A program made the translations under genes and the position numbers. The notes beneath the pieces are model-generated. The model saw only the letters and a list, made by a program, of their open reading frames with translations. It was not told where the DNA came from and did not search any database. A stretch of 59,658 bases of DNA, the filler included. It is 6 parts of 6 records of this genome, joined end to end, with 100 filler letters (N's around TTAATTAATTAA, not from the genome) between each part and the next. Parts side by side here need not be neighbours in the genome. Positions count along the whole stretch, not along the records: positions 1 to 16,635 come from SRR31156797_21619; 5 more parts are not named here. The stretch is one strand, 5' to 3'. Below, one piece after another: positions 1 through 49,301 of this stretch (positions are counted from its first letter, which is position 1; every line of letters starts with the position of its first letter).

Positions 1-84
1 AAAATGGAAAATTCCGAATGTATTCTCTGTGGAAACTGTGCCGATGTTTGTCGCAAAAAATGCATTGAATTAAAGTTTAAATAA
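1..84 (+). CDS. 3' end of a 4Fe-4S binding protein (partial)
   Basis: Frame 1 reads KMENSECILCGNCADVCRKKCIELKFK-TAA, containing a CxxCxxCxxxC ferredoxin-type motif. Truncated by the window start. Confidence 0.8.
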   Translation, partial: KMENSECILCGNCADVCRKKCIELKFK

Positions 85-121
85 TTAAAAAACAGAGTGC
101 TAAAAATAATAAACAAATAAA

Positions 122-688
122 ATGAATAAAAAAAACATTCCAAGAACAGGCAGAATAGGACGATATGTGAATATTGTTGAAAGAAAAACAAACGAAGAAA
201 GCTTTTTAAAAATCGTGAACAAATCAGATGAGTACAAAAAATATAATCCGGAAGAAAAAGCCGAATGGTGGAAAAACTCAGTTGTAATACTGGAGAATGA
301 GGTGGGCAGTAATAGTGCTATAGATATAATGAAAACATGTGGAAGCAAATGTTGTGGTAAAGGGAACAGAAATACAGCCAAACGACTTCTAAAAGAATCA
401 ACGACTATAAAGGAATTTCTTCATAGACTTAGTAAATATGAAGTAAAAGAAGGTGAACTTGAATACAAACTTATTAATGAGAACACCATAATTGGAAGAC
501 ACAACAGGTGTTTTTGCGGTCAGGTAAAAAAAACTAAGGAGAATTTCAAAAATGATACCTATTGCCTATGTTCAGTAGAATTTAACAGGCAATTTTTTGA
601 AGCAGCTTTTGAAAGACCAGTTCAGGTGAAGTTGAAACAATCAATTCTTACTGGCGGCAACTACTGCGAATTTGAAATAAAATTTTAA
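122..688 (+). CDS. Cys-rich hypothetical protein (DUF6144/V4R-like)
   Basis: 188 aa with CGSKCC, CFC, YCLCS and a C-terminal SILTGGNYCEFEI typical of V4R-like ligand-binding folds. Confidence 0.6.
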   Translation: MNKKNIPRTGRIGRYVNIVERKTNEESFLKIVNKSDEYKKYNPEEKAEWWKNSVVILENEVGSNSAIDIMKTCGSKCCGKGNRNTAKRLLKESTTIKEFLHRLSKYEVKEGELEYKLINENTIIGRHNRCFCGQVKKTKENFKNDTYCLCSVEFNRQFFEAAFERPVQVKLKQSILTGGNYCEFEIKF

Positions 689-704
689 TATAAAAATAAA
701 TATC

Positions 705-965
705 ATGAATATTCAAAAAACAGAGCAAACAGCTCATCATAAAGCAAAACTAAAAGTTGAATTTCGAATTCACCTGATAACTTACGTGGTAGTGAATTCT
801 TTACTTGTAATTATCAACCTAATCTTTACTCCCGGATATTTATGGTTTATATGGCCACTTTTAGGATGGGGAATAGGAATAGTTTTACATAGAAGAGAGT
901 TAAAATTTCCGCCAAGACAGAGGCTAACGGATCGGTTGATTGAAAAAGAGATGAAAAAACATTAA
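705..965 (+). CDS. 2TM domain protein
   Basis: FRIHLITYVVVN...LWFIWPLLGWGIGIVLH is the 2TM domain signature. Confidence 0.8.
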   Translation: MNIQKTEQTAHHKAKLKVEFRIHLITYVVVNSLLVIINLIFTPGYLWFIWPLLGWGIGIVLHRRELKFPPRQRLTDRLIEKEMKKH

Positions 966-1001
966 ACGAATACATTTAAGAAACTAAAAAAATCAGCAAT
1001 T

Positions 1002-1643
1002 ATGGAACCTAAAAACAAAGAAACATACTGGAGTCAATTTACCTCAGAGTATGAAGAAAAACAAAGTTATGTGGCTGGTAAAGAAGTTATTTCATTAGCC
1101 ATGGAAGAATTATCAACGGAGCTTAACCTGGGGAAAGTTTTAGAACTGGGGTGTGGTACCGGATTATATACTGAAACTTTACAAAAGATTTCAGAAGAAA
1201 TTATAGCAACAGATTTTTCAGAAGAAATGATTGAGGCAGCTAAGCAAAAGAGCGGATATCTTGATAATGTTAGTTTCATGCAGGCAAATGCTCTAAATTT
1301 ACAATTCGATAAAGAAAGTTTTGACACGGTATTTATGGCAAATCTTATACACATTATCGAAGATCCGGAAAAGGCAATTAGGGAGAGTTGCCGTGTGCTG
1401 AAAAGCGGAGGGCAAATTATTATTACTTCTTTTGCAGTTGACCAAATGAGTTTCTTCAACAAAATATCCTTAGCAATACGATATCAAAAAGCATTTGGAA
1501 AACCATCTAAAGAATCATTAAAAGAAAAAACACCAAAAAAAAGAATTGAAAAACTGTTGGTTAATAATGGTTTTAAAATCTCTAAAAGCAAGGTTTTAGG
1601 AAATAAAGAAAAAGCTGTTTATATAAAATGTATTAAAAATTAG
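1002..1643 (+). CDS. Class I SAM-dependent methyltransferase
   Basis: Motifs VLELGCGTG, DFSEEMI, FDTV and RVLKSGG. Confidence 0.9.
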   Translation: MEPKNKETYWSQFTSEYEEKQSYVAGKEVISLAMEELSTELNLGKVLELGCGTGLYTETLQKISEEIIATDFSEEMIEAAKQKSGYLDNVSFMQANALNLQFDKESFDTVFMANLIHIIEDPEKAIRESCRVLKSGGQIIITSFAVDQMSFFNKISLAIRYQKAFGKPSKESLKEKTPKKRIEKLLVNNGFKISKSKVLGNKEKAVYIKCIKN

Positions 1644-1673
1644 AAAAGTGACACGAAAAGAAATATCAAGATA

Positions 1674-2162
1674 ATGGAAACAAAATTCAGAAAAAGCCCG
1701 CCTGTGTGCCTGTTCATTTCAATTATTAGATTACTGACAGGGAAACTTAAATTATCAAAACATTACCTCAAGGATACTGTAAAAATGAAGGATGGTCAGG
1801 AGTACACCATTTTCAGGCATATTACTACATTTCCTGTTAACGATGCTGAACAAGCGGTTACATTTATCGTTCGCTTTAAATTTGCCCGCTTATCGCATAA
1901 TGCAAACAGAATAGCTTCAATAATTCCTATGCTTTTGATTACCGGCTTTCCGGGTTTTCAAACCAAAATGTACGCAGTAAACAAGGAAAATGGCTACTGG
2001 CAGGGAATGTATCAGTGGAAAACCCAAAAGTACCTTGAAGAGTATTTGAAATCCTTTGTGTATAAAATGATGAATAAAAGAGCAACAAAAGAAACAATTA
2101 GTTCCAAGGAGCATAGAAATCAGTTATTAACCAATTATATTGATAATAATAAAATTCTATAA
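1674..2162 (+). CDS. Hypothetical protein, possible YdhR-like dimeric alpha/beta barrel
   Basis: 162 aa ORF co-oriented with the cluster. GFPGFQTKMYAV...WQGMYQW resembles YdhR/monooxygenase barrels. Confidence 0.5.
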   Translation: METKFRKSPPVCLFISIIRLLTGKLKLSKHYLKDTVKMKDGQEYTIFRHITTFPVNDAEQAVTFIVRFKFARLSHNANRIASIIPMLLITGFPGFQTKMYAVNKENGYWQGMYQWKTQKYLEEYLKSFVYKMMNKRATKETISSKEHRNQLLTNYIDNNKIL

Positions 2163-2361
2163 TATTGGAGTTTCAAAGAATCAAATGTGTTCCAACGCAC
2201 TTCAACCATCCCTTCACTTTCAGGCACATTCGGCATTCCTGCAAAGCTTGCTCACAGTCCCAAAATGCCAAAAGAGCCTTCAAGCCCGTCCCGCTCCAAC
2301 GCACAGATAGAGCGACAGTGCATTAATAAACGGATTGATGTTTAAATGAATCAAGGCCAGC

Positions 2362-2492
2362 GTTCAACAATGGGTATGGTTCATTGGCGTGATAGCGGAT
2401 TGCGAGCGTTTGTATTTCAATTTTTCTTATCTTGTAACTTGATAAGTTTGAGCTATGTAATAGCCAACGAAACCATACCCTAACCGTTGGCA
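2362..2492 (+). mobile_element. attC-like imperfect inverted repeat (candidate cassette recombination site)
   Basis: Starts GTTCAAC (fits RYYYAAC) and ends GTTGGCA. The arms GGGTATGGTT-CATTGGC and GCCAACG-AAACCATACCC pair with one extra base. 131 bp, with an internal CTTATC/GATAAG hairpin. Confidence 0.5.
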
Positions 2493-2586
2493 ACAATGTT
2501 AAATAGAAAGCCGATGATTAAATTAAGGCGAATCTCAAAGACAGATTGGAGTTATTAAACGAATTAATAATTTATAGTACAGTAAC

Positions 2587-3222
2587 ATGAGCCCTAAAAT
2601 AATAGCTTTCATTGCTTTAGTGATTACATCCGTATCCTTAACGGGTAATGATTTGTTTCAACTTGCTTTTGGGGATCACTGGACCGATGCTCATAACAAC
2701 ATGGATGGGGCTGTCGAAAAAGTAAAAGCACTGGTCATTAAAACGCTGATACAGGATGGTGACGTGTGGATTGCCGATGCGGGACAATCTGATTTTTCCG
2801 CTGAGCTTGTAGATGCTGTTCAAAAGGAATGGCCTGAAATAGAGACCTCAAAAAGAATACATGTGGTTCAACATGCCGATTGGAATGAAGAGGTAACAAC
2901 GCCTGAAAAGCTGGATTTCGTGAAACAAAATACGGACTATATAAAAATACCGGATGGCAATGGCGTCGGAAACGGAACTCCCGGTTTTCGAACCCCCGAA
3001 TTTACCAATTGGGATGATAAAATTACCAATCCTGATTTGAGGAAAATATGGCAGCTTGCTATTGATCTGTCAAATAAATACAATGGAAAAGATGGCCGTT
3101 ACCACAATGGGGCGATTGCAGCAGGAGGATTAGATTTCTCAGATTTGTCTGAAGTCTGTTGGGTTTTCGGAATTCACGATATTACGGACACCGAGCATTT
3201 TTTTAATCTCTACGCCCAATAA
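2587..3222 (+). CDS. Exported hypothetical protein, possibly internally deleted
   Basis: Signal-peptide-like N-terminus followed by VWIADAGQSDF, HVVQHADWNE, IPDGN and GLDFSD, reminiscent of a nucleoside-hydrolase-like fold. Confidence 0.5.
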   Translation: MSPKIIAFIALVITSVSLTGNDLFQLAFGDHWTDAHNNMDGAVEKVKALVIKTLIQDGDVWIADAGQSDFSAELVDAVQKEWPEIETSKRIHVVQHADWNEEVTTPEKLDFVKQNTDYIKIPDGNGVGNGTPGFRTPEFTNWDDKITNPDLRKIWQLAIDLSNKYNGKDGRYHNGAIAAGGLDFSDLSEVCWVFGIHDITDTEHFFNLYAQ

Positions 3223-3516
3223 TAGGCCATTTAATCCTGATTTTGACTATTGCCGGGTAATCAAACCAACCACTATGGCTCGTTAACTGTTCAAAGCTAA
3301 CCTTTTTTGGTACAGAGCTGAAGTAGCCATTTTTCTCCTATGAAGGTTTCCTGGGCGTCGTTAGGTTACAGGTCAATATTTGCAACACGTTTTAAGCAAT
3401 TTCACAAGGAGTTCCGGCATGTAATGCTAAAATTTTTCGTATGTTTACAGTAATCAAAGCACGTCATAAAGTTTTGGTAGTGAGGTTTACCATTCAACAA
3501 TTAAAAGCAAATTAAG

Positions 3517-5415
3517 GTGGAGGAATCGTTTCAAAAGCAATTAGCAGCGTTAAAAAGGGAAAATTTGCAACTAAAAGAACAGTTGGATTTTGCAAAGAAA
3601 TTTATGGCTAATTCCAATTATTGGGAAACCTATCGGGATAAAACAGGGCAAATTATTTACATTTCCCCGAAACTGGAAGATACGCTTGGCGAAAGAAAAG
3701 AAGCCTATTTAAAGGGAGACATCCAAATTACAGACTTTATCCACGAAGATGATATTGAAAAGACCATCGAAAACTATAAAAAAGTGATGCAGGGGATTGA
3801 TGTTCCACCGATAAAATGCCGTTTGAATAGCACCCTGTCGCTTGAATATGTACTTATTGATTACAAAAGAGTATTGGATGATGATGGCCGGTTGAATGGT
3901 ATCAGAACGTGTATTTCCGACATTACAGAGCTGGAAAAAAAGGAAAGGAATAAACATAACAATGAAGAACTGCTACGGAATACTACAGATCATATTCCGG
4001 CTTTAATTGGGCAAATTGACAATAATTTGAAATACACCTATGTAAATAAAAGGTATGCAGATTATACCGGGATTGAGGCAGACAAGATTATTGGCAGTAA
4101 TGTTATTGACGTTATTTCAGAGGAGACTTTTAAAATATCGCATCCATATATGTTGAGAGCCCTGGCGGGTGAATTTGTAAGTTTTGAAACCAGGTATATT
4201 AACTCGGCCGGAGAGGTTTTTTATTTTGAATCAAACTTTGTCCCTAACAAGAAAAATAATCAGGTTAAGGGTTTCATGGTACTTGCATGGGATATTACCG
4301 AACGAAAAAAAGTGGAACAAGCCTTGAAACAAAGTGAAGAAAAATTCCACACACTATTTTCAGACAGCAGGGTTGTAAAATTGCTTATAAGTGCGCAAAA
4401 AGATGGTAAAATAATTGATGCAAACGAAGCGGCTTCAAATTTTTATGGATATTCAATTGATAAACTTTGCATCATGAAAATAAATCAGATAAATATTTTG
4501 TCTGAAAGTGAAATAAGGGAAAGAATGAACGAAGCAGAGTTGAAAAAACAAAATTATTTTGAATTTAAGCATCGCCTTGCATCAGGCGAAATAAAGGATG
4601 TTGAAGTATTCTCTAATCCTGTAATGATTAACAACGAAAGCGTACTCCACTCTATCATTGTAGATATAACTGAAAGAAAAAAAGCAGAGCATGTCATCAA
4701 AGAAAACCAGGTTCAATTAAAAGAGCTAAATGCTACAAAAGACAAATTATTTTCAATTATTGCCCATGACCTAAGAAGCCCTTTTACTAACATATATTCG
4801 CTCTCTGGCCTGTTAACTGATGACGAAATAGAAATTGATATTTCTAAATCCAGGAGTATCACTGAATTGATTAATTCGGCCGCCAAAAACTCCCTTAGTT
4901 TGCTCGATAACTTATTGAACTGGTCTAAATCTCAAACGGGCACACTCGACAATAACCCCAAAAAAATTGCTTTGTCACACCTTTTGAATAAAATAGAAGA
5001 AGAATTAAACGCACAGGCAGCAGTTAAAAACATTTCATTAAATATTATTCAATCGAAAGAAACGGAAATTTTTGCTGATGAAAATATGGTGAACCTAATA
5101 TTTCGAAACCTGGTTTCGAATGCAATTAAATTTACCAATCAGGGCGGAAGAATTGACGTTATTGCAATTGAAAAGCCGGATGTTGTGGAGATCTCAGTGG
5201 CAGATAATGGTGTTGGTATCCCGGAAGATAAACTTATTCACCTTTTTAAAATAAATTCGGAAGCACAATCTGTTGGTACTGCAAATGAAAAAGGCTCAGG
5301 ATTGGGATTAATACTTTGTAAGGAATTTGTTGAAAAACTTGGAGGAAAGATTTGGGTAGAAAGTATAGTCGGAAAAGGTAGTAATTTCAAATTTACAGTA
5401 CCGTTGCACAAATAA
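3517..5415 (+). CDS. Multi-PAS sensor histidine kinase
   Basis: Three PAS/PAC segments (DITE motifs), H-box IIAHDLRSP, N-box NLVSNAIKF, and G boxes DNGVG and GSGLGL. Confidence 0.95.
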   Translation: MEESFQKQLAALKRENLQLKEQLDFAKKFMANSNYWETYRDKTGQIIYISPKLEDTLGERKEAYLKGDIQITDFIHEDDIEKTIENYKKVMQGIDVPPIKCRLNSTLSLEYVLIDYKRVLDDDGRLNGIRTCISDITELEKKERNKHNNEELLRNTTDHIPALIGQIDNNLKYTYVNKRYADYTGIEADKIIGSNVIDVISEETFKISHPYMLRALAGEFVSFETRYINSAGEVFYFESNFVPNKKNNQVKGFMVLAWDITERKKVEQALKQSEEKFHTLFSDSRVVKLLISAQKDGKIIDANEAASNFYGYSIDKLCIMKINQINILSESEIRERMNEAELKKQNYFEFKHRLASGEIKDVEVFSNPVMINNESVLHSIIVDITERKKAEHVIKENQVQLKELNATKDKLFSIIAHDLRSPFTNIYSLSGLLTDDEIEIDISKSRSITELINSAAKNSLSLLDNLLNWSKSQTGTLDNNPKKIALSHLLNKIEEELNAQAAVKNISLNIIQSKETEIFADENMVNLIFRNLVSNAIKFTNQGGRIDVIAIEKPDVVEISVADNGVGIPEDKLIHLFKINSEAQSVGTANEKGSGLGLILCKEFVEKLGGKIWVESIVGKGSNFKFTVPLHK

Positions 5416-5470
5416 ATAATGAATTATTCGGGATAAATATTGTCCCGGTTAATTGTTTTATCATTACAAT

Positions 5471-5505
5471 AAAAAAGTCCCGAAACCAAACGGTTTCGGG
5501 ACTTT
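5471..5505. terminator. Intrinsic terminator between convergent genes
   Basis: AAAAAAGTCCCGAAACC-AAAC-GGTTTCGGGACTTT perfect stem with an A/T tail. Confidence 0.85.
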
Positions 5506-5524
5506 GCATTAAAGAATTCTAATA

Positions 5525-8359
5525 CTATTTGATTACCACCTGTTTTGTGGTGAATCCTTCATCGGTCATAATTCTGAACATATAAACGCCACTGCTTAGC
5601 TGTGATGTGTTGATGCTGCATTCGTTTCCGGCAGCATACGCGTTTATTACGAGGTTGCCCATGTAATCGAATACCATAACCTTACTCAGATTATTGGCTA
5701 CGCTAATGTTAACCACATCTCTTGCCGGGTTCGGGTAAATGCTTATGCTTTCGGTATTGTTGATATCCTGGCCAAGTCCTGTTGGTACAATATCCCAACC
5801 TTCGCCAAAGCAAACGTCATCATAGAAAGCACCCGGTGTTCCGCCAACATCCCATCCGTAGTAGTCTATTCCGCCAATGGATGTAGCTACATCCCACTGG
5901 TAGAACCATTCGCCGTCGAACCATACCTCGCCAAGACCCATATCAAGGTCAAAAGCTACCTCAACAAAAATCCAGGTATCCGGTGTGTAGGTAAAATCAA
6001 CGTCAATGGTATTTTGTGTTACAGTTCCGGTTCCATCATCATTAAAGAACAACTCAACTACCCATTCCTGCCCTGGAGTGGGGTCGGATTGAACATTGAA
6101 ATATCCTGAAAATCCTGCAGGAATATAAATGTTGTTTGAGTATACCCATTGTCCTTCAGTAATAGGTTCATCAGCCAGTTTTAGTACAAGGTCGATTGTA
6201 CCGGCATCTATGGCAAATGAATTGGATCCGCTGTGTGCATGCATATCGCTGACAAAGGCATCTTCTGAGCCGCCGGGTGCACCGCTCCAGGTAGTCCAGG
6301 GGTCACCCAACTGTTCGGCAACATATCCGCCAACGGTCAGATCATCAAAATACTCACAGGCATCATTCTCGAACAACTGTTCAAAACAAATATCATCAAA
6401 ATGGGCTCCGGCAGGTGCTCCTCCGGTACCCGGATTTGCATAAATATTTGAACCTGCAAGGGTATTGGCTCCCGCAGTACCAAATGTACCGAGTGTCCAC
6501 TGGTATTCATGTGATAGTACGCCATCTATATACAACTGGCACCAGTCATTGTCCAGATCTACAACCACTTCATGGTTGATCCATGTGTCATACTCGAAAG
6601 GTTGTACCAAAGCTGCGGCACCACCGCCATCAACAACGATTGTTCCGTCATCTTCAAACATTACCTGGAAGCCCCATTCTGTTCCCGGAACCACATCTTT
6701 TTGCAGGTTGTAGTAACCGGCTGTTCCTGTTGGAACATAAATATTCAGGCTATAGCTCCATTTGCCGGAGGTGATATTATTCCCTGTAATCAAATGAACA
6801 AGGTCTGTTGATCCTTCAACAAGAATTGAGTTTGAAGGCGATGTGGAATATAAATCAGAAACAACAGCATCTTCGTCGCCACCGGGAGCTCCACTCCAGG
6901 TTGTCCAGTTGCCGCCCAATTGTTCGGCTGCATAGCCACCAACTGTGAGGTCATCAAAACCTTCACAATCGCCGGAGGGTGGAGGTGGAGGAGGGCCACC
7001 GATACTGAAAGGGGTGAACTCTTCAGATCCAAACTCGCCACCTTCCATAAATACCACACTCTCTTCATCCATCAATTTGTAATATCCTATACCGTAAGAG
7101 CAGCAAATGCCGTCGCCATAAGCATCAAAAATGGCAAATGTGTAACAATCGTCATCTGCAAATTCAAAAGTTTCATTGAAAATAGTTCCCGGCTGCCCGG
7201 TGTAAGGTCCGCCGCTGTAAACTACATCTCCTGCTGAATTGGTAACCTCCCAGGTTGTTTCTTCAGGGTAGTTATCGGTTTTTAATTCGAAAAGTACAGT
7301 TGAGGTAGATACTGCGAAAGCAGCTTCAAAGGTACCTTCAAACGTGTCGTTGTCGGGATTTGGATCTGCCTGTCCGTTAGGATTACTTACCGTAAATTCA
7401 AATGTATTAACCGGTTGTGATACAAATTCAATTTCCGGAAGAGTAACATCTTCACTTATGTTAAATGCCAGCTCACCGGTCCATGCATAAGTTCCCGTAG
7501 TACCACCATTGATCGAATATTCAATATCCAGGCTGGTAAGTGGTTCAGCTCCCATGTTTTTAATGGTAACAACAGGCTCAACTGTATTTCCACAGTATTC
7601 GCCAACAGGGTGTTTCAGGGCTTTTGCCTCAGCATCAATGTTATATACTGAAATGGCCATGAATTTTTGAGTCCCCTGTAGAATTTCTTTTGTGCCATTG
7701 TCCTGAACAAATGCTACCATTGAGCAATTATCCGTATCCCAATAGCTGGTATTAAAGTCAAGTTCGATAACTTGCGTGTCGCTACCTGAAAAATCGAGTG
7801 CTGTTCCGTTTTGGCTTGGAACCATCAGGCGGTTTACCCAGTCCTGTTCATCCATTCCACCCCAAACGATAGGTAGTTTTGATTCAGTAATTACAAACTG
7901 AAGAACCAAGTTGGAGGAAGTGTTACCACCTACATTTTCAACAGTTACAACGGCATGGTAATCACCGTCGGTTTCTTCGAATTCAATACCGATCGTAAAG
8001 TCTGACGGGACTTCAAGACGTGGTTCTATTATTCCGGCAGCCGTTGGTGCCCAATTATTAATACCACCAACAATTTCCTGGATACCATCAAATTTGTAAG
8101 TTGGATACCCGGTAATACCATAATAGTTATTACGGGCATTTGAGTAAACGTTGGCTAACGAATCACCATTGTGGTTTTCGATAACAACAACATCATATCC
8201 GTCTTCGACAATTTCTACTGCTCCTTGTGCAGCTGTCGGGCAGAAGCCTCACCAAAAGCCGGTTGCTCCTTCAATAACGACAACGTCGCGCTCTACCTGC
8301 TGGGCGTGAAGGAAAATACCCAACAAAAGTGTTAACATTAGTGTAAATAAATTTTTCAT
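5525..8359 (-). CDS. T9SS-secreted Omp28/thioredoxin-like protein, probable selenoprotein (in-frame TGA at codon 37, UxxC), 944 aa
   Basis: ATG at 8359 gives MKNLFTLMLTLLLGIFLHA-QQVERDVVVIEGATGFW-[TGA 8251-8249]-GFCPTAAQG...YGITGYPTYKFDG, in frame with the tracked ORF 7909-5525. C-terminal T9SS type A signal ISIYPNPARD...LSSGVYMFRI...KQVVIK. Confidence 0.8.
8203..8248 (-). promoter_or_regulatory. Candidate bacterial SECIS hairpin 3' of the in-frame UGA
   Basis: mRNA CGACA-GCUGC-[ACAAGGA]-GCAGU-(AGAAAU)-UGUCG. The apical loop starts after a 20-nt spacer from the UGA. Folded by eye only. Confidence 0.35.
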
Positions 8360-8406
8360 ACCTGAAATTTTGATTGATTAAAAATTAATAGTCTAATTAA
8401 CATATG

Positions 8407-8414
8407 CAAATGTA
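8407..8414 (-). promoter_or_regulatory. Bacteroidetes-type -7 promoter element
   Basis: TACATTTG (TAnnTTTG) about 50 nt upstream of the ATG at 8359, supporting that start. Confidence 0.5.
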
Positions 8415-8937
8415 TGAATCCTTGATGGTATAAAAACAACAAGATGATAATTTGGAATGATTCTGAATCAGCCACTTAATAAGCATTAAATCCCCTATCA
8501 AAATGGTACTGCACTTAAGAAGGCTTATTGATGGCTGGCTTCCCTTTTTCAGGTATTTGATCACTTCTTCGAAAATTGTAAATCGTTCAGTTCACACCAG
8601 AAGGGCACCAAAAAAAATGATCATGGCCAGGATAAGACTTTTGTTCAATTTCATGAAAGTCCGGTTTTTGCTCAACAGGATTAAAGTAGCGCATTTGGCT
8701 TACCCCCCAAAAAAATTTCCTGACGGAGTTCATTTAGATGTATATAGAAATTGGCCATATTTGATTTGAATGGTGTTCTCAATCTTCTGGGTTATAACCT
8801 GAATGTTTCAATCACAAAACGGGGCAGTCCGTCCTGACCAAAGTTTAAAACACAGGATGCAAAAAGGCTGCTAACCGGGTAGGTTTGTTTGCAGATTTAT
8901 GATTAGACTTGCAGCCTGAATTTGCAAATTAAAAAAC

Positions 8938-9747
8938 ATGAAGTATTTAAGAATTTTTCCACTGTTGGTGTTATTGATTTTGATGATTGCCTGTATAAAC
9001 GACAAAGCGGATGAAAATGAAGCAAAGACCATAAACCCTAAAGAAGCTGTGCTTGGTAAATGGGTTCGGCAAGGCCCGGGAGGAAAAGCAAGCCTTGCTT
9101 TTAAAGAAAACAATCGTGTTGAAATTGATATGAAACAGGATGGTGAAGTTGAAGTGGTTTCGGAATACGTGGTAAAAGGTAATACCATAGAAATTACTGA
9201 TGTTGAAGGACAAAAGTGCCCGGGCACCGGAATTTATGATATCACATTTGGGGAACATTACGTGGGTTTGGATATGTTGATGGATAGTTGTTTTGGACGT
9301 GTGAGGGCGACTATGGGTTTCTGGACACGGCCCAACTATGCTGATATCATCCTTGACCTTGATCAGGCCATTGGAAAAACAAAAAATCCGGAACTGCTAC
9401 TGGAAAGAGCCAGGATATATGTTGCCATTGGCAAGGCCCCTGAGGCAAAGGCAGATTTTGAATCATATGTTAAAACAGATTCTACCGACGCCTATGTTTT
9501 TATGAACCTGGCGGGGACATGCTTTCCACATGATCTTCCCGGGGTGATTAAAAACTGTACAAAGGCCCTGGAACTGGACCCGAATGATAAAAATTCCTAT
9601 TTCATGCGCGGACTGGCAAAATACGACCTTGGGCAAAGGGAGGAAGCCTGCGATGATATCCAGCGTGCCATTGAGCTTGGCTTCAACTTTATTGCCCCGG
9701 CAATCTCAAGCCGGTGCAACGAATTTTGGAATCAGGAGCAGGAGTAA
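8938..9747 (+). CDS. Lipoprotein with C-terminal TPR repeats
   Basis: Lipobox-like LMIAC. TPR pattern KALELDPNDKNSYFMRGLAKYDLG...EACDDIQRAIELG. Confidence 0.8.
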   Translation: MKYLRIFPLLVLLILMIACINDKADENEAKTINPKEAVLGKWVRQGPGGKASLAFKENNRVEIDMKQDGEVEVVSEYVVKGNTIEITDVEGQKCPGTGIYDITFGEHYVGLDMLMDSCFGRVRATMGFWTRPNYADIILDLDQAIGKTKNPELLLERARIYVAIGKAPEAKADFESYVKTDSTDAYVFMNLAGTCFPHDLPGVIKNCTKALELDPNDKNSYFMRGLAKYDLGQREEACDDIQRAIELGFNFIAPAISSRCNEFWNQEQE

Positions 9748-9767
9748 TGTTGAGCCTGAGCTCGCTG

Positions 9768-9983
9768 TTATTGATCAAGCAGCCATTTCCAAACAGGAAC
9801 GATCGATACTCCTAATCCATCTTCATTAAAACGGTCTTCCTGATCATATGTCAGGATTAGGCCATTTTTCAGGTTCAGGCTTTTCAGGGCATCAGTCAGC
9901 CCGCTGATTTCACGTTTTTGATTGTCAGGATTTAGCTCAAAACAAACCTGTATAGCTGCTGATAAAGAATTTTTATCTGGATA
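9768..9983 (-). pseudogene. C-terminal remnant of a COG1373/DUF4143-type AAA+ ATPase
   Basis: The minus frame reads AIQVCFELNPDNQKREISGL...GLILTYDQED...IVPVWKWLLDQ-TAA. There is an in-frame stop immediately upstream and no start codon. Confidence 0.7.
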
Positions 9984-10181
9984 TCAATAGTTTATATTAC
10001 TAATATACAAAAATGCATATTGCTAATGCAAACTATCAACAAACGCAGTGAATCTCAATTGATGTGATACATCCGGAATTGCATAATGTGTGATGGCTTT
10101 TCACGGGAAAATCAGGCATAAACCAACCGGGTGCTTTTCAGGTTAATAATCATCAATGAAAGTAGATCGTTCGTAAATCCA

Positions 10182-12161
10182 CTAGCCTGCCATCTCTTTT
10201 TCAACTTCCTTCACCAGCTCTTTCATCGAAATATTGCCAACTGCCGAATTGCGAAGCTGTCCCATGGCCCAGTTAACTGCATCCTGTGGTTTATTGGAAT
10301 TTTTAATTTTTTCAAACTTTTCTTTCAGGAAAGGAATCTTAGCTAAAATATCAGCTTGTGGGTACCTTTTGAATTTGATGGTTGTCAGCACCGATTCAAA
10401 TTCCATCTTTGGGTGCTCATACACTTCCGCAATCATATCCCTGGCCAGCTCTGCATCCAGTTTTTCAGCCACAAGGAAAGCAAAAAGATCATAAATCACC
10501 TCATAGCTGAATTGCGCTGTTGGAGTGTGGTGGCCTTCCACATATTTCATCGTGTGCCCCACAAATGTTCCGGCAAAAACCGGGTCAACGTTTAGTTCTT
10601 TAATGATGCGTTCGATGATGGGAAACAGGTTTTTTGTGAAGATAAAAGTATAGGCATCCTCCGGTATTTTCCATGCTTTCATTTTCTGATAGCGGTCAAT
10701 TACATCTTCCGGCAGGTTTTGCGACAGTTTTGTAATCCGTTCTTCGGTAAGTGGGATTGGTGGAGAATCCGTGTCGGGATACATGCGGTCGGCACCCGGA
10801 AGCACACGCTCGAAGATGGTGGTACCATCCTCGAAAGATTTCCTGGTCTCGTTGGGTACACCCTCAAAGGCCATCCTGCATCTCTCTTCAACGGTTTCAA
10901 GTGCGGTCACCAAATCTTCATCGGGCCCCCAGATTATCAGTTGTGCATCGTCATCCCCGGCTTTAAACATTTCGCGAATGCTGTTAAAATCTTTGGCCGA
11001 AATAACAGGATCAAATTCCTCGCTATGCGTCATATTGGGTTTTTCCAGGCAGGCAATTACCTTGAGCCTGTCGGCAAATTCATCCGAAAACACTTTACCG
11101 GGTTGGGTAAAGTGCGAAAGGATTCCTTTGAAATGTGGCAGGTTCACGGCCAGTATCCTGTTGCCTTCTTTTTTCGAGCCCACCAGCGGTTCATAGGTAA
11201 AATTGTATGAATGGAATTTCAGATACTGATGCCTGGGTTGCCACCTTTTGATGTCTTTGATGCGGTTTTTCAATTCATCCCGGATGGCCAGCAGTGCCCA
11301 CTGCCTGAAACATTCGTTGTGGGTCAACTCCGGGATCCATTTGGTATGTGCCACGCCTTTTATTTCCACCCGGCTACCACCGCGGCAGCTCACGTTTACA
11401 TCCTCACGGCCGGCACCCATGCCTGTACGCACCTTGCCTGTGCTTCGGTTCAGGAATCGGATGTAATCGCAGGCTTCCTGAACTTCATCAGGATTTTCAC
11501 AATCCGGGTAGGTTACCGTTTCGATCAGGGGCATCCCGAGGCGGTCGGTTTTGTAAGTTCTGATGTGGCCAACATCCGAAATCTCACGGCAGGAGTCCTC
11601 TTCAAGGCTGAGCTGGATCAGGCGGATCTTCTTATTTTTCAGTGGAATTTCCCCTTCTACGCCGATGATAGCTGTCCGCTGAAAGCCGGTTGGGATGGAG
11701 CCGTCAAGATACTGTTTTCGTGTTATATGCACTTCGCCAACAATGTTCAGTTTTGAAAGTAGCGATATGGCTATCGAGATATCCAGTGCCTCTTTGTTTA
11801 GCGGAAATGGTGGGGTATCGTCAACCTCATAGGTGCAGGTGGTGTCGTGCTTAACCCGGTAGATGATCTCTTTTTTGGTTTTGAACTCCATCAGCGCAGT
11901 TCCGTCATATTCTCCCAGCTCACTCAGCGTTGGGCGCATGTGGCGGATGAGCTCGGCATCGTAATCTTCACTCTGGTGGAATACGCCGGCAGGGCAGTTA
12001 CAGAAAAGCTTTTTGCCGGTGAGAAGTTGTTGGTGTACTTCAAGGCCCGACATGAATCCAATTCTGTCGTAATCCTTTTGTGTGGCTTGCTTGCGTGTTA
12101 CATAGCCGATATGTTTACGTGTAGTTTCGTAGTTATTCTTCGGATTAAATTTCTGTTTCAT
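10182..12161 (-). CDS. gatE: Archaeal-type Glu-tRNA(Gln) amidotransferase subunit E
   Basis: GLEVHQQL, RPTLSELGEYD, DGSIPTGFQRT, DRLGMPLIE, REDVNVS, RVEIKGV, GVPNETR, PGADRMYPDTD and the AspRS-like (GAD) insertion distinguish GatE from GatB. Confidence 0.85.
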   Translation of the reverse strand: MKQKFNPKNNYETTRKHIGYVTRKQATQKDYDRIGFMSGLEVHQQLLTGKKLFCNCPAGVFHQSEDYDAELIRHMRPTLSELGEYDGTALMEFKTKKEIIYRVKHDTTCTYEVDDTPPFPLNKEALDISIAISLLSKLNIVGEVHITRKQYLDGSIPTGFQRTAIIGVEGEIPLKNKKIRLIQLSLEEDSCREISDVGHIRTYKTDRLGMPLIETVTYPDCENPDEVQEACDYIRFLNRSTGKVRTGMGAGREDVNVSCRGGSRVEIKGVAHTKWIPELTHNECFRQWALLAIRDELKNRIKDIKRWQPRHQYLKFHSYNFTYEPLVGSKKEGNRILAVNLPHFKGILSHFTQPGKVFSDEFADRLKVIACLEKPNMTHSEEFDPVISAKDFNSIREMFKAGDDDAQLIIWGPDEDLVTALETVEERCRMAFEGVPNETRKSFEDGTTIFERVLPGADRMYPDTDSPPIPLTEERITKLSQNLPEDVIDRYQKMKAWKIPEDAYTFIFTKNLFPIIERIIKELNVDPVFAGTFVGHTMKYVEGHHTPTAQFSYEVIYDLFAFLVAEKLDAELARDMIAEVYEHPKMEFESVLTTIKFKRYPQADILAKIPFLKEKFEKIKNSNKPQDAVNWAMGQLRNSAVGNISMKELVKEVEKEMAG

Positions 12162-12195
12162 TTTTGGTTTTGGCCGAATTAGTAATTTTGGGCAT

Positions 12196-12203
12196 CAAAT
12201 GTA
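12196..12203 (-). promoter_or_regulatory. Bacteroidetes-type -7 promoter element upstream of gatE
   Basis: TACATTTG on the minus strand about 35 nt before the gatE ATG. Confidence 0.45.
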
Positions 12204-12341
12204 CGTAATCTTAACCAAAAGATGAGCTAAAAACGGCCGGCTGTTTCAGACTTTTGGATTTATTTTTTTTTCGCTTATGAAATGAAATTGCACTTTTGTT
12301 TGGATTATACTAATTTTACAGGAAATTAAAATCATATCATT

Positions 12342-13121
12342 ATGAATAGTTCAGGAATATTAAAAGTTATCCTCGTGGTTGTTGGCCTTGCAGTAATTGG
12401 GGGCCTGGTATATTATTTTTTACTGAATCCCGGAAATAAATTCGACAGAACTTTGAAAAAAGCCGATCAGTATTTTGCCGAACAGCAATACCAGGAAGCT
12501 AAAAAACTCTACAGCGAGGCTGTAACGATCAAAGATGATGAAGTCTATCCCAAGCAGCAACTTTTCACCATCGATAGCATTCAACGGAAACTTGAACTGG
12601 ACATAAAATATGACGAAAAAGTTCAAAAAGCTGATCTGTTATACAGCCAGGCTGAATACCTGGAGGCAAGTAAATTTTATTTTGATGCACTCAACGTAAA
12701 GCCTGACGAAGACTATCCGGTGGAACAGATCAAGAAAATTCAGGAGTTGCTTGAAGATCCCGATTTTGAAAAAAAACAAAAAGAATTTGCCGCTTCAAAA
12801 GCGAAGCAACCGGCAGCTACCAAGAAGCAGGAACCCAAAACCCAATCAAAACCCACTACACAAAAACCCATGCGAACTAATGCTGACGGCAAATACTTTC
12901 ATGTGGTTGTCGGCGTTTTCGATAATCATGACAACGCAATTAAAATGCGCGATAAAATGATTGAAATGGGGAAGGAGTCGATCATTATCCAGCGGCCCGG
13001 CGACTTAGAAGCGGTTACTTTTGGATCATACGAAAAGCTTAATACAGCGTTTAACTTCCTTGAATTTGTTCGAAACGATATCGCTGCAGATGCCTGGGTA
13101 CTTTATGATAAAACTAACTAA
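12342..13121 (+). CDS. Membrane-anchored TPR-like + SPOR domain protein
   Basis: N-terminal TM helix, two YPxxQ-ended helical repeats, a low-complexity linker, and a C-terminal FHVVVGVF...NA...DAWV SPOR pattern. Confidence 0.75.
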   Translation: MNSSGILKVILVVVGLAVIGGLVYYFLLNPGNKFDRTLKKADQYFAEQQYQEAKKLYSEAVTIKDDEVYPKQQLFTIDSIQRKLELDIKYDEKVQKADLLYSQAEYLEASKFYFDALNVKPDEDYPVEQIKKIQELLEDPDFEKKQKEFAASKAKQPAATKKQEPKTQSKPTTQKPMRTNADGKYFHVVVGVFDNHDNAIKMRDKMIEMGKESIIIQRPGDLEAVTFGSYEKLNTAFNFLEFVRNDIAADAWVLYDKTN

Positions 13122-14682
13122 AATAGGTGTTTCCTCACCCGGCCAACGCACATTAGTGCTGCTTTTCTTCCTTTCATTTTTTTTCTTTCTTCACACGATT
13201 GCCCCGGCACAGAACAAAGCCAAAATTCGGATTGTGCAGGCTGATGACCTGCTGGGTAATCAAACAGATGAAGATGAACTGAATATTTTTACCGGCAACG
13301 TGATTTTCGAACACGACAGCGCTTTCCTTTACTGTGACAGCGCCGTGCTTTACAGCAAAAAAAACAGTTTGGAAGCACACGGGAATGTGCATATTAAAAT
13401 GAGCGATACACTTAACCTGTTTGGTGATGAACTTGAGTATGACGGGAATACACGCGTTGCTATCGTAAAGCGTAATGTGATCCTTGAAGATAACGATGCT
13501 ACCTTGTACACTGACAGGTTGTTCTACGACCGAAAAGTTGATGTTGCATATTACTATTCAGGGGGTAGGATCATCAACGAGGACAACGAACTTACCAGCC
13601 TCATAGGAAATTACAACACCGGCTTGAAAAGGGTTTACTTCCAGGAGGATGTTCAACTGGTAAACCCTGAATATTTGCTGAGGTCGGATACCCTGATTTA
13701 TAATACGGCGCAGGAACTCGCTTACATCCAGGGCCCGACAACCATTACAGGTAAAGATGAAAAACTCTACTCTGAAAAGGGTATGTATAATACGGTTACG
13801 AACTTTACACGCCTCGAGCTGAATTCGCATATGACCTACAAAGAGCAATACCTTTCCGGTGACAGTATTATTTATGATAAAACTTCTGGAGTAGGCAAAG
13901 TATTTGGGGATGTTTTTATTAAAGATTCTGTGAAAGATATTATCGTTACCGGACAATATGCCGACTATCGTCGAAAAGACGGGTTTGCCTACGCCACCGA
14001 CAGTGCCGAGGTGATCATGATCGACAAAACAGATAGTCTCTTCATGCATGCCGATACGCTTTGGCTTACCTTTGACAGCACCGAAAGCCCGGAAAAATTG
14101 CTGGCCTACCACAAATGCAAATATTACAAAACCGACCTTCAGGGTATGACCGATTCGCTGGTTTACTCCTTTGCCGACTCCACCATCACCATGTATTTCG
14201 ATCCGTTGATATGGACGCAGGGCAACCAGCTTTCGGCAGAGCTGATTAAAATATTTTCATCCAATCAGCGGGTGGATTCCATGCACATGACCAATTCTTC
14301 GTTTATCATTTCTCAGGACGATTACGATACGGTGCAGTTCAATCAGATCAAGGGCAAGGATATGGTGGCTTATTTCGAAGAGAATGAATTGAACCTGGTA
14401 ACGGTGAACGGCAACAGCGAAACCATTTATTTTGTGCGGCAGGAAGATGGGGCTTTGATAGGCATAAACAAGGCTGTGGCCAGCAGCATGGAAATCTGGA
14501 TCAGTGAAAGGCAGGTGGAGGATATTTATTATTTCGACAGCCCTGATGCCCAGCTTTACCCGGAGTCGGAGCTACCCGCCGACCAGTATTATCTGCGCGA
14601 TTTCCGCTGGCAAAGCGATGACCGGCCGGGGAACAGGTATGATATTTTTAATTGGCCGGCTGACAGGCCCGCATTGCGATAG
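13105..14682 (+). CDS. OstA-like (LptA/LptD N-terminal beta-jellyroll repeat) protein
   Basis: GNVIFEHDSAFLYCDSA, LYTDRLFYDR, DSLFMHADTL and NQIKGKDM match the Bacteroidetes OstA-like family. Start placed at ATG 13105 (uncertain). Confidence 0.8.
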   Translation: MIKLTKIGVSSPGQRTLVLLFFLSFFFFLHTIAPAQNKAKIRIVQADDLLGNQTDEDELNIFTGNVIFEHDSAFLYCDSAVLYSKKNSLEAHGNVHIKMSDTLNLFGDELEYDGNTRVAIVKRNVILEDNDATLYTDRLFYDRKVDVAYYYSGGRIINEDNELTSLIGNYNTGLKRVYFQEDVQLVNPEYLLRSDTLIYNTAQELAYIQGPTTITGKDEKLYSEKGMYNTVTNFTRLELNSHMTYKEQYLSGDSIIYDKTSGVGKVFGDVFIKDSVKDIIVTGQYADYRRKDGFAYATDSAEVIMIDKTDSLFMHADTLWLTFDSTESPEKLLAYHKCKYYKTDLQGMTDSLVYSFADSTITMYFDPLIWTQGNQLSAELIKIFSSNQRVDSMHMTNSSFIISQDDYDTVQFNQIKGKDMVAYFEENELNLVTVNGNSETIYFVRQEDGALIGINKAVASSMEIWISERQVEDIYYFDSPDAQLYPESELPADQYYLRDFRWQSDDRPGNRYDIFNWPADRPALR

Positions 14683-14684
14683 CC

Positions 14685-14719
14685 AAAAAAAATCCGGATG
14701 GTTTAACCATCCGGATTTT
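14685..14719. terminator. Bidirectional intrinsic terminator
   Basis: AAAAAAAATCCGGATGGT-TTA-ACCATCCGGATTTT between convergent genes. Confidence 0.85.
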
Positions 14720-14746
14720 ATTAAATTGAATTATCCTGACCCGAGA

Positions 14747-14914
14747 TTATTCGGGGTGAATTGCCTCTACCGGACAAACGTCAGCGCAAGCACCACAGTC
14801 AGTGCAAGCATCAGGATCAATTTTGTAGATTTCGCCCTCTGAGATAGCCTCAACAGGACACTCATCAATGCAAGTACCACATGCGGTACAATCATCTGTG
14901 ATTACGTAAGCCAT
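14747..14914 (-). CDS. 2[4Fe-4S] ferredoxin (55 aa)
   Basis: MAYVITDDCTACGTCIDECP...CTDCGACADVCP contains two CxxCxxCxxxCP motifs. True start is ATG 14914. Confidence 0.95.
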   Translation of the reverse strand: MAYVITDDCTACGTCIDECPVEAISEGEIYKIDPDACTDCGACADVCPVEAIHPE

Positions 14915-15068
14915 TTTTCTAACGTTTTTAAGTTTATAGAATCCGTGCAAAGTTGAAAATTATTTCTTTTTAAAGGTTTCTAAATTGGGTTTTTACGGAA
15001 ATTTATAGCCAGTCTAAATTGGGGTTCAGGTTTCTAATGTACTTGAATTGAGGATTTTTAGAAATAAT

Positions 15069-15231
15069 GTTGTCAACTCACTGCGTTCGTGTTGTCATTG
15101 TTGTTGATTCGCTCTGCTCATGTTATTTACTCACTGCGTTCGTGTTGTCATTGTTGTCGATTCGCTCTGCTCATGTTGTCAACGACAACCCGACAACAAC
15201 GACAACCTGACAACAACAACAACCTGACAAC
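15069..15231. repeat. Composite tandem/inverted intergenic repeat
   Basis: A 49-bp unit is duplicated at 15076-15124 and 15129-15177 (one mismatch) and is rich in GTTGTC. It is followed by a run of complementary GACAAC units at 15181-15231. Confidence 0.85.
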
Positions 15232-15268
15232 TTTTTCTTACCTTTCCCCCATCTCCATCCAATTTCAC

Positions 15269-15276
15269 TAATTTTG
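15269..15276 (+). promoter_or_regulatory. Bacteroidetes-type -7 promoter element upstream of hutU
   Basis: TAATTTTG (TAnnTTTG) 35 nt before the hutU ATG. Confidence 0.45.
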
Positions 15277-15311
15277 CCACTCTAATCACAAAAATTAAAA
15301 TTCCGGATATC

Positions 15312-16635
15312 ATGACTGATTTTCAAAATGCCGTACTGCAAGGGATTCCAGAGGTTCTCCCCGTACCCAAAACGTTTGATGCATCTGTTTCGCATGCGCC
15401 CAAACGCAAGGCAATCTTATCACACAACGAAAAGAAACTGGCCCTGAAAAATGCATTGCGTTATTTCGATCCAAAACATCATAAAGTGCTGGCTCCTGAG
15501 TTTGCAGTTGAGCTTGAAAAATACGGCCGTATATATATGTATCGTTTCCGTCCGGATTATGAGATGTATGCCCGCCCCATAGAAGAATATCCTACGAAAA
15601 GCAGGCAGGCCGCTGCCATCATGCTCATGATCCAGAACAACCTGGACCCGGCAGTGGCACAGCATCCCCACGAATTGATCACTTACGGGGGAAATGGGGC
15701 GGTTTTCCAAAATTGGGCGCAATACCTGCTCACCATGCAGTACCTGGCCCAAATGACGGACGAGCAAACCCTGGCCATGTATTCGGGGCACCCCATGGGA
15801 TTGTTTCCATCGCACAAGGATGCACCAAGAGTTGTGGTTACCAACGGCATGGTCATCCCCAACTATTCCAAACAAGACGACTGGGAAAAGTTTAACGCAC
15901 TGGGTGTTTCACAGTATGGCCAAATGACGGCAGGCTCCTATATGTACATCGGCCCACAGGGCATCGTTCATGGGACCACCATTACGGTTTTAAATGCTGG
16001 TCGTAAACTGGCCGGAAAAGCTGATGATGGCCTTGGGGGTAAGTTGTTTGTAACATCCGGATTAGGAGGGATGTCAGGCGCTCAGGCCAAGGCTGCCGTG
16101 ATTGCCGGTGCAGTGGGTGTGATTGCTGAAGTAAACGAAGCGGCAGCAGTCAAGAGGCATTCACAAGGCTGGGTGGATGAACTGTTTTACAATCTGGATG
16201 AAATTATCGCCAGGATACGAAAAGCCAAAGCCGGAAAAGAATCCGTATCGCTGGCTTTTGTGGGCAACATTGTTGACCTTTGGGAAAAAATTGTTGAGGA
16301 GGATATTTTTGTGGAGCTGGGCTCCGACCAGACTTCTCTGCACAATCCCTGGGCCGGAGGTTATTATCCTGCCGGACTTTCGTTTGAAGAATCCAACAAA
16401 ATGATGGCCGATGATCCTGAGCAATTCAAGGTAAAAGTACAGGAATCCCTGAGGCGGCATGTGGAGGCCATCAATAAACTCACTGCAAAGGGCATGTATT
16501 TCTTCGACTATGGCAATGCGTTTCTGCTGGAATCCAGCCGCGCCGGTGCCGATATTCTGAAAGAAAACGGTGATTTCAAATATCCCTCCTACGTGCAGGA
16601 TATTATGGGCCCCATGTGTTTTGATTATGGATTTG
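15312..16635 (+). CDS. hutU: Urocanate hydratase, long form (partial, cut by contig end)
   Basis: NNLDPAVAQHPHELITYGGNG, YGQMTAGSYMYIGPQGIVHGT, GLGGMSGAQ, SDQTSLHN and FDYGNAF. Confidence 0.95.
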
Positions 16636-16735
16636 NNNNNNNNNNNNNNNNNNNNNNNNNNNNNNNNNNNNNNNNNNNNTTAATTAATTAANNNNNNNNN
16701 NNNNNNNNNNNNNNNNNNNNNNNNNNNNNNNNNNN
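16636..16735. other. Artificial contig spacer
   Basis: N44-TTAATTAATTAA-N44, which places stops in all six frames. Confidence 0.98.
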
Positions 16736-35923: not shown

Positions 35924-36023
35924 NNNNNNNNNNNNNNNNNNNNNNNNNNNNNNNNNNNNNNNNNNNNTTAATTAATTAANNNNNNNNNNNNNNNNNNNNN
36001 NNNNNNNNNNNNNNNNNNNNNNN
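35924..36023. other. Artificial contig spacer
   Basis: N44-TTAATTAATTAA-N44. Confidence 0.98.
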
Positions 36024-42030: not shown

Positions 42031-42130
42031 NNNNNNNNNNNNNNNNNNNNNNNNNNNNNNNNNNNNNNNNNNNNTTAATTAATTAANNNNNNNNNNNNNN
42101 NNNNNNNNNNNNNNNNNNNNNNNNNNNNNN
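42031..42130. other. Artificial contig spacer
   Basis: N44-TTAATTAATTAA-N44. Confidence 0.98.
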
Positions 42131-49201: not shown

Positions 49202-49301
49202 NNNNNNNNNNNNNNNNNNNNNNNNNNNNNNNNNNNNNNNNNNNNTTAATTAATTAANNNNNNNNNNNNNNNNNNNNNNNNNNNNNNNNNNNNNNNNNNN
49301 N
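49202..49301. other. Artificial contig spacer
   Basis: N44-TTAATTAATTAA-N44. Confidence 0.98.

Follow-up and report, generated by a model that had tools for sequence, protein, structure and literature searches.

Is a gene for a subunit of GatDE, an amidotransferase regarded as archaeal, a genuine resident of a bacterial genome, and what would its product do there? This question is raised by gatE, the gene for the kinase/transamidase subunit of GatDE, in a stretch of DNA of 59,658 nucleotides (the window), which consists of six contigs placed end to end with five spacers of the form N44-TTAATTAATTAA-N44 between them. GatDE has been called an archaeal signature protein (PMC2330236), was described in archaeal genomes only (PMC7373986) and is restricted to archaea according to a review (PMC9499178); these papers and the others cited by PMC number are represented here and below by the excerpts available. 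An initial annotation of the window, made from the letters alone, had named GatDE the archaea-specific enzyme of the textbooks, and this is indeed what the excerpts of PMC2330236 and PMC9499178 say. No paper on bacterial GatDE was found in the open-access library searched, subscription journals being outside the scope of the search. It is nevertheless probable that the window carries the GatE of a bacterial GatDE, which is resident in a Lentimicrobiaceae-like Bacteroidales bacterium, derives from an old Asgard-like transfer and is no longer linked to its gatD gene.

Identity and residency of GatE

The intact open reading frame (ORF) reported for gatE was borne out (Table 1), and its translation contains all five motifs quoted in the initial annotation (EVHQQL, RPTLSELGE, DGSIPTGFQRT, GVPNETR and PGADRMYP). 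The protein exceeds the cut-offs of both GatE equivalog models of NCBIfam (NF003107, 483.5 bits vs. 456; TIGR00134, 417.3 bits vs. 319.55), with residues 28–656 matching model positions 3–627 of 630. All GatB models (TIGR00133 and the NF0040xx models) scored at most 121 bits, their cut-offs being at least 315 bits; the best of them reached 120.9 bits vs. a cut-off of 338, the cradle region alone being aligned. The Pfam domain GatB_N, the catalytic domain common to GatB and GatE, was detected with 3e-45. The closest solved proteins are the GatE chains 1zq1_C of P. abyssi and 2d6f_C of M. thermautotrophicus (E = 1.7e-88). An AlphaFold2 (AF2) model built on 48 sequences had a mean predicted local distance difference test (pLDDT) value of 90.7. 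Its target-normalised template modelling (TM) scores were 0.79–0.85 for GatE chains and 0.56–0.75 for GatB chains, and the top match was again the GatE chain 1zq1_C (0.85 over 512 columns). NCBIfam scores, the match to solved structures and the fold comparison thus agree on GatE rather than GatB, as had been claimed.

The Mg ligands of M. thermautotrophicus GatE were identified by mutation as His15, Glu157 and Glu184 (PMC2330236). By manual transfer from the alignment to 2d6f_C these positions correspond to His43, Glu187 and Glu214 of the window protein (Table 1), and the predicted active site is intact and conserved. Furthermore, gatE is under purifying selection, with a ratio of nonsynonymous to synonymous substitution rates (dN/dS) of 0.034 in comparison to L003, its closest relative, with which it shares 92% protein identity.

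Several features distinguish the protein from its archaeal counterparts. The N-terminal extension of about 30 residues noted before is real: alignments to 1zq1_C and 2d6f_C begin at residue 29–30 of the window protein and at residue 2–8 of the chains. These additional 29 or so residues are conserved in the closer relatives (subclade A, see below), and residues 7–18 were modelled by AF2 as a helix. The replacement of the archaeal GTIRQD(L/V)N(V/I)S by GAGREDVNVS was likewise confirmed by alignment; the consensus of the bacterial GatE clade at this site is GxGAxRQDVNVS. The claim of a GAD insertion was upheld in part. The full-length match to the GatE models and the fold back it, and the insertion stretch, which sets GatE apart from GatB, is aligned with the GatE model and the solved chains. 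Pfam GAD itself stayed below its cut-off at residues 331–420 (17.4 bits vs. 23.4). The same holds for Pfam GatB_Yqey at residues 516–656 (19.4 bits vs. 27), in the region of the YqeY-like tail by which GatE proteins recognise the D-loop of the tRNA. The C-terminal region was modelled by AF2 as all-helical with high confidence, and the alignments of the best solved chains stop short of the tail.

Sequences closely related to the window protein are widespread in Bacteroidota. The best 120 database clusters are 69–92% identical to it, and those that carry a name are GatE proteins of Bacteroidales or Bacteroidota. A scan of species genomes yielded 452 stretches encoding relatives, and the best 80 of these 452 loci are nearly all located in assemblies of Bacteroidales, Lentimicrobiaceae, Prolixibacteraceae and Marinifilum, including chromosomes of 3.5–4.1 Mb. 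Of 201 genomes sampled from the order to which relative G001 belongs, 91 had a GatE above the cut-off, as did 13 of 301 sampled from its phylum. The gene arrangement is shared as well: an OstA-like gene is divergent to gatE in 24 of 78 distinct subclade A loci, at position −1 in 18 and at position −2 in 6 of them. In one such locus (L013) the OstA-like gene is preceded by genes for MlaD, Amidase_3 and LptD_2 proteins.

An apparent gatE in this window, which is an artificial concatenation of contigs, could also stem from contaminating archaeal DNA, from a chimeric join made in assembly or from a GatB mistaken for GatE, and the excerpted reviews do call the family archaea-only. However, gatE lies within one contig amid bacterial genes (for a T9SS sorting domain protein and OstA_2), the related genomes with a like gene arrangement include the large chromosomes mentioned above, and the GC content of gatE matches that of its flanks. 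Moreover, a Logan contig of 16,614 bases covers positions 7500–15500 with 0 differences, having been built by another assembler, probably from the reads of the same source run. This was the one run found to contain the stretch, and no RNA run was listed for it. A misread GatB is contradicted by the scores of the GatB models given above. The probability of any of these three explanations is negligible, and all of them were set aside. According to this, gatE is resident in a Lentimicrobiaceae-like Bacteroidales bacterium, as synteny with complete chromosomes and the Logan contig attest and as the initial annotation had expected.

Origin of the bacterial GatE clade and location of gatD

Among the 1.84 billion cluster representatives searched, 635 matched at E ≤ 1e-30. 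Trees were calculated with FastTree (146 rows) and by an IQ-TREE quick search (65 rows), rooted on four bacterial GatB sequences and labelled from the source names. The window protein is placed among GatE proteins and not with GatB. All 25 labelled bacterial GatE sequences and 12 unlabelled rows form one clade with a Shimodaira–Hasegawa-like approximate likelihood ratio test (SH-aLRT) support of 100, which is nested among archaeal GatE and has a single Heimdallarchaeota sequence as its sister (SH-aLRT 96). Sequences of Thorarchaeota and Hodarchaeales stand at the base of the tree, and the remaining archaea are grouped in a clade of their own (SH-aLRT 99). FastTree and IQ-TREE are concordant on the bacterial clade, its Heimdall sister and the placement of the archaea. 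The tree is nevertheless a quick search with SH-aLRT as its only support and four bacterial GatB as outgroup; it includes 21 unlabelled rows, and the sister of the bacterial clade is one sequence from a Heimdall metagenome-assembled genome (MAG).

On both trees the window protein falls into a group with a long stem, here named subclade A. A second group, subclade B, is found in 12 other Bacteroidota genomes and is 47–52% identical to the window protein. Since subclade B groups with an Aminicenantales sequence and not with subclade A, two GatE lineages exist in Bacteroidota. Named bacterial members of the whole clade include KSB1, Calditrichia, Latescibacteria, Krumholzibacteria, Aminicenantes, Desulfaltia, CSSED10-310 and a Clostridiales MAG, and the clade comprises thousands of database entries from many phyla. 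Thus, gatE of the window is ordinary, one of the many genes of a large bacterial clade that the databases already label.

The tree fits a single old transfer from archaea to bacteria, which would have been followed by spread among bacteria. The inter-domain transfer proposed earlier is therefore to be modified: an archaeal origin agrees with the tree, but a special transfer into this contig does not, because the labelled bacterial GatE sequences form one clade beside the Heimdall sequence and the transfer is accordingly old and not particular to the gatE contig. The donor would have been an Asgard-like archaeon, the large bacterial clade its outcome and the window gene a member of subclade A within it.

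GatE acts together with GatD, whose gene is usually found close by. In five of five complete genomes GatD exceeded its cut-off (about 495–509 bits vs. 324) and was encoded directly 3′ of gatE on the same strand. In the 78 distinct loci of subclade A, gatD is the next gene in 39 and lies one gene further in 10, so that it is at most two genes downstream of gatE in 49 of them; 25 loci have other genes and four have no ORF downstream. The 12 distinct loci of subclade B show the same four arrangements (7, 1, 3 and 1, respectively). The window and its nearest relatives are among the 25 loci of subclade A in which gatE is followed by other genes. Neither gatD nor a remnant of it was found in the window when GatD sequences of four relatives were used for tblastn (best E = 1.4), and since the window has no gatD, a GatD partner of its GatE is inferred from the relatives.

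In 10 genomes of the unlinked sub-lineage, GatD is encoded elsewhere and intact in 7 and split in 1; it was not found in the remaining 2 of the 10, which are draft MAGs. In the three relatives examined (L093, L094, L095) gatD follows purC (SAICAR synthetase) immediately and in the same orientation. Neither purC nor the epimerase gene near the relocated gatD hints at a function. The split case is that of the closest relative (genome G006, with a GatE 92% identical to that of the window), in which at L095 (G006:C120:8008-9223) the gatD model was matched in two adjacent frames (positions 2–173 and 167–403), which is due either to a frameshift or to an assembly error. The motifs TGGT and HGTDT, which we take to be asparaginase signatures, are present in GatD of all four relatives inspected. 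The separation of gatE and gatD is a distinguishing feature of this sub-lineage, in which gatD would have left a former gatE-gatD operon for another site, behind purC in three relatives.

A different reading is that GatE is an orphan in this lineage, working without GatD on free ammonia or with another amidase, or that it is heading for loss. The lack of gatD in the window, the split gatD of the closest relative and the two related genomes that showed none point in this direction. On the other hand, the low dN/dS value, the intact ORF and the invariant catalytic residues are those of a maintained enzyme, GatD is intact elsewhere in most genomes of the sub-lineage, at a conserved site behind purC, and the genomes without GatD are drafts. 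We therefore regard an orphan GatE as very unlikely and prefer a GatE whose partner is probably encoded at a distance.

Host translation machinery and possible substrates

An inventory of glnS, gatCAB, gatD, gltX and tRNA-Gln identity elements in the same genome had been suggested as a check. It was carried out in relatives, and all synthetases, amidotransferases and tRNAs reported here are from their genomes. Glutaminyl-tRNA synthetase (GlnRS) exceeded the cut-off in all 22 GatE-positive relatives, asparaginyl-tRNA synthetase (AsnRS) is present in five of five complete genomes, and each genome has one glutamyl-tRNA synthetase (GluRS). Exchange of Arg358 for Gln in GluRS of T. thermophilus gives a non-discriminating enzyme (PMC2978374). 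Judged by this single-residue marker, all 33 GluRS examined have the discriminating-type Arg at the corresponding position, 19 of 19 from GatE-positive genomes (13/13 in subclade A, 6/6 in subclade B) and 14 of 14 from GatE-free genomes (8/8 with neither amidotransferase, 6/6 with GatB only).

The first base pair of tRNA-Gln (UUG and CUG) in relative G001 is U1-A72 instead of the A1-U72 that archaeal GatDE recognises in tRNA-Gln (PMC2330236), and the D-loop has 7–8 nt. In the same genome tRNA-Asn also has U1-A72, tRNA-Asp has G1-C72 and tRNA-Glu G1-U72, each with a D-loop of 9 nt. No tRNA gene stands beside gatE in 30 loci, save three unrelated tRNA genes more than 5 kb away. As a separate observation, gltX, the gene for tRNA-Gln (CUG) and glnS are adjacent in G001 (G001:C1:1724864-1728505; L142, L145), gltX and glnS are a few kb apart at most in G002–G005, and in one subclade B locus (G063:C45:508058-512924; L110) glnS is located about 1.4 kb from gatE.

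GatB was found in none of the 33 subclade A genomes; it is present in each of the 12 genomes with subclade B and, in the phylum sample, in 252 of 301. The idea that GatE and GatB exclude each other across the phylum was considered and rejected, as 12 of 13 GatE-positive genomes also have GatB (Fisher p = 0.70); these 12 genomes are those of subclade B. AsnA or AsnB exceeded the cut-off in 19 of 29 subclade A genomes vs. 17 of 19 genomes with neither amidotransferase (Fisher p = 0.09), a trend in genomes whose completeness is unreported.

According to the work on archaea, GatE uses ATP and Mg to phosphorylate the side chain carried by the misacylated tRNA and then amidates it with ammonia from GatD (PMC2330236). 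By family analogy, the window protein would bind a misacylated aminoacyl-tRNA, phosphorylate the side-chain carboxylate with ATP and Mg held by His43, Glu187 and Glu214, and amidate this intermediate with ammonia that GatD, an asparaginase-like glutaminase, would release. The substrate of this reaction can be named with different degrees of assurance. Glu-tRNA(Gln), the default of the family, is our tentative choice, at somewhat less than an even chance. Asp-tRNA(Asn), or both substrates, is possible, with a chance clearly short of even, and something else altogether is unlikely.

If the enzyme acts as a canonical Glu-tRNA(Gln) amidotransferase, it would add an indirect route to Gln-tRNA(Gln) to the direct one through GlnRS. 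This function is consistent with scores above the curated cut-offs for subunit E of Glu-tRNA(Gln) amidotransferase and with the conserved catalytic core. In addition, the first pair of tRNA-Gln is weak and its D-loop short, which distinguishes it from tRNA-Glu, and subclade B GatDE occurs alongside GatCAB in 12 of 12 genomes, as in archaea that divide Gln and Asn between the two enzymes (PMC2330236). However, such a route requires a non-discriminating GluRS, and the only GluRS of each genome carries the discriminating-type Arg, in GatE-positive and GatE-free genomes alike. GlnRS is present throughout. The route also brings no net gain of glutamine, because GatD consumes Gln or Asn to supply the amide group (PMC2330236). 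With GlnRS, the discriminating-type Arg of GluRS and U1-A72 in tRNA-Gln, Glu-tRNA(Gln) is not evidently made in the relatives. Thus, the alternative Gln-tRNA route put first in the initial annotation is not evidenced, although we still give the canonical function a chance not far below even. The other reading offered there, a repurposed amidotransferase, may apply.

Alternatively, GatDE of subclade A may serve as an Asp-tRNA(Asn) amidotransferase, alone or in addition to acting on Glu-tRNA(Gln). It would then make asparagine on its tRNA, as GatCAB does in other Bacteroidota that possess GlnRS and AsnRS. The complete lack of GatB in subclade A, in comparison to its frequency in the phylum sample, argues for such a role, and so does the apparent unavailability of Glu-tRNA(Gln) that the GlnRS and GluRS data suggest. 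The U1-A72 pair is common to tRNA-Asn and tRNA-Gln and sets both apart from tRNA-Asp and tRNA-Glu. Moreover, neither AsnA nor AsnB exceeded the cut-off in 10 of 29 subclade A genomes vs. 2 of 19 amidotransferase-free genomes, and there is a precedent in GatCAB, which serves Asn synthesis in bacteria possessing both synthetases (PMC4206432). Against this stands that the difference in asparagine synthetases is not significant, in genomes of unreported completeness, and that the majority of the subclade A genomes do have such an enzyme. Archaeal GatDE rejects Asp-tRNA(Asn) (PMC2330236), the D-loop of tRNA-Asn resembles those of tRNA-Asp and tRNA-Glu rather than that of tRNA-Gln, and the single aspartyl-tRNA synthetase of the hosts would have to be non-discriminating. 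Subclade B GatDE coexists with GatB in every genome, and the missing GatB may be a trait of the order, since GatE, too, is missing from 48 of the 49 GatB-negative genomes in the phylum sample. Taken together, this role is doubtful. The same low probability applies to its strictest version, in which subclade A GatDE would not be a Gln-tRNA enzyme at all; retuned to U1-A72, perhaps by its diverged tail and the added N-terminal helix, it would amidate Asp-tRNA(Asn) as a non-orthologous replacement of GatCAB.

Several of these results weigh against assigning the window gene to a bacterial GatDE of archaeal descent: the insertion and the tail stay below the Pfam cut-offs, the tree has the limits named above, and the partner has to be taken from relatives, one of which has a split gatD and two of which yielded none. 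The hosts possess GlnRS and the discriminating-type GluRS residue, their tRNA-Gln differs from the archaeal one in its first pair, and the context of the archaeal indirect Gln-tRNA pathway is absent in the relatives. We nevertheless hold to a GatE that belongs to a bacterial GatDE, whereas its catalysis, its substrate and its pairing with a distant GatD are projected from the family and the relatives.

Gene neighbourhood and comparison with known systems

The contig assigned to gatE in the initial annotation needs a narrower definition: gatE is inside one contig, but this contig is only window 1–16635, the rest consisting of five other contigs. The GC content ranges from 0.31 to 0.58 across the parts of the window. 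The positions of gatE, its parts and its surroundings are given in Table 1. Among the neighbours announced before, the T9SS (type IX secretion system) sorting domain and OstA_2 were recovered, whereas SPOR was found only below its threshold (15.9 bits vs. 21); a TPR protein is also encoded on the contig. The TAnnTTTG element is indeed present upstream of the gatE start, but it is weak evidence for residency because 21 such sites (both strands) occur on the 16.6-kb contig.

Table 1 Features of the window in and around gatE and between the contigs
Feature	Position	Strand	Basis or remark
gatE coding sequence, 659 aa + stop, kinase/transamidase subunit of GatDE	10182..12161	-	ORF, NCBIfam, PDB, AF2
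N-terminal extension not shared by archaeal GatE, residues 1-29	12075..12161	-	alignments, subclade A consensus, model
His43 codon (= His15 Mg ligand)	12033..12035	-	alignment to 2d6f_C; column invariant, 48 sequences
Glu187 codon (= Glu157 Mg ligand)	11601..11603	-	alignment to 2d6f_C; column invariant, 48 sequences
Glu214 codon (= Glu184 Mg ligand)	11520..11522	-	alignment to 2d6f_C; column invariant, 48 sequences
Insertion domain, residues about 301-424, GAD/AspRS-like	10890..11261	-	approximate borders from model secondary structure
C-terminal helical and tail region, residues about 473-659	10185..10745	-	approximate; diverged from YqeY-like tail
Stretch 3′ of gatE, usual gatD site in relatives	9748..10181	.	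no gatD here
TAnnTTTG match TACATTTG	12196..12203	-	42 nt 5′ of gatE ATG
T9SS sorting domain protein	5525-7909		bacterial neighbour of gatE
OstA_2 / LptD_N-like gene	13021-14682	+	Pfam OstA_2 1e-55; conserved divergent neighbour of gatE
Urocanase gene	15312-16635		truncated by contig end
Spacer closing the gatE contig	16636..16735	.	N44-TTAATTAATTAA-N44
Further artificial spacers	35924-36023, 42031-42130, 49202-49301, 54440-54539		44 N, TTAATTAATTAA, 44 N

An open frame of 71 aa without start context (9771–9983, minus strand) lies just 3′ of gatE on the same strand, where the relatives have gatD. It resembles a C-terminal remnant of some other gene and matched no Pfam family.

The second contig (16815–35881) encodes a cbb3 oxidase (COX1, FixO, FixP), FixH, a P-type ATPase, DsbD_2 and a Crp/Fnr-type regulator, as well as Usp, a PP-loop ATPase, DUF2987 and a FIST sensor with a hybrid kinase. 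This gene set looks proteobacterial, in contrast to the Bacteroidales gatE contig. The contig at 42131–48939 (GC 0.54–0.57) has an LpoB-like protein as its sole named product; five of its six ORFs, two of them longer than 500 aa, had no Pfam family at 1e-8. The remaining contigs carry genes for a chemoreceptor, a sigma-54 activator and sulfate activation. In view of this gene content, the six contigs are not necessarily from one organism.

For the window itself the finding has small weight, as it adds one more member to a clade of bacterial GatE proteins for which annotation pipelines already have a name. It exposes a gap, since reviews up to 2022 describe GatDE, in the excerpts available, as archaea-only (PMC2330236, PMC7373986, PMC9499178). 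In contrast to this view, nearly half of the sampled genomes of one Bacteroidota order carry GatE, and named bacterial relatives occur in at least eight other bacterial groups. [quoted passage not shown] As the hosts need no amidotransferase for decoding, the role of the enzyme in them is a testable question.

Compared to archaeal GatE (P. abyssi, 1ZQ1; M. thermautotrophicus, 2D6F), the window protein belongs to the same family by curated models, has the same fold and shares about 30–35% identity over nearly the full length. The Mg ligands are identical, and the relatives have a GatD with the asparaginase motifs. The differences concern the host, which is bacterial and, judged by the relatives, has GlnRS, AsnRS and a tRNA-Gln with U1-A72 and not A1-U72. 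They also concern the protein, with its extension of 29 residues and its insertion and tail diverged to below the Pfam cut-offs, and the gene order, with gatD unlinked from gatE in this sub-lineage. The archaeal indirect pathway to Gln-tRNA combines a non-discriminating GluRS with GatDE and lacks GlnRS, and the relatives depart from it in having GlnRS, the discriminating-type Arg in GluRS and U1-A72 in tRNA-Gln. GatB of GatCAB has a paralogous cradle domain and its chemistry in common with GatE (PMC2330236), but it has no insertion domain, is about 180 residues shorter and partners with GatA and GatC rather than with GatD. The Prokaryotic Genome Annotation Pipeline (PGAP) uses the name 'Glu-tRNA(Gln) amidotransferase subunit GatE' for bacterial proteins of Bacteroidales, Aminicenantes, KSB1, Latescibacteria, Calditrichia and other groups. 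Among these the window protein takes its place as a plain member, and the only difference is in gene order, gatD not being located downstream of gatE in the window and its nearest relatives.

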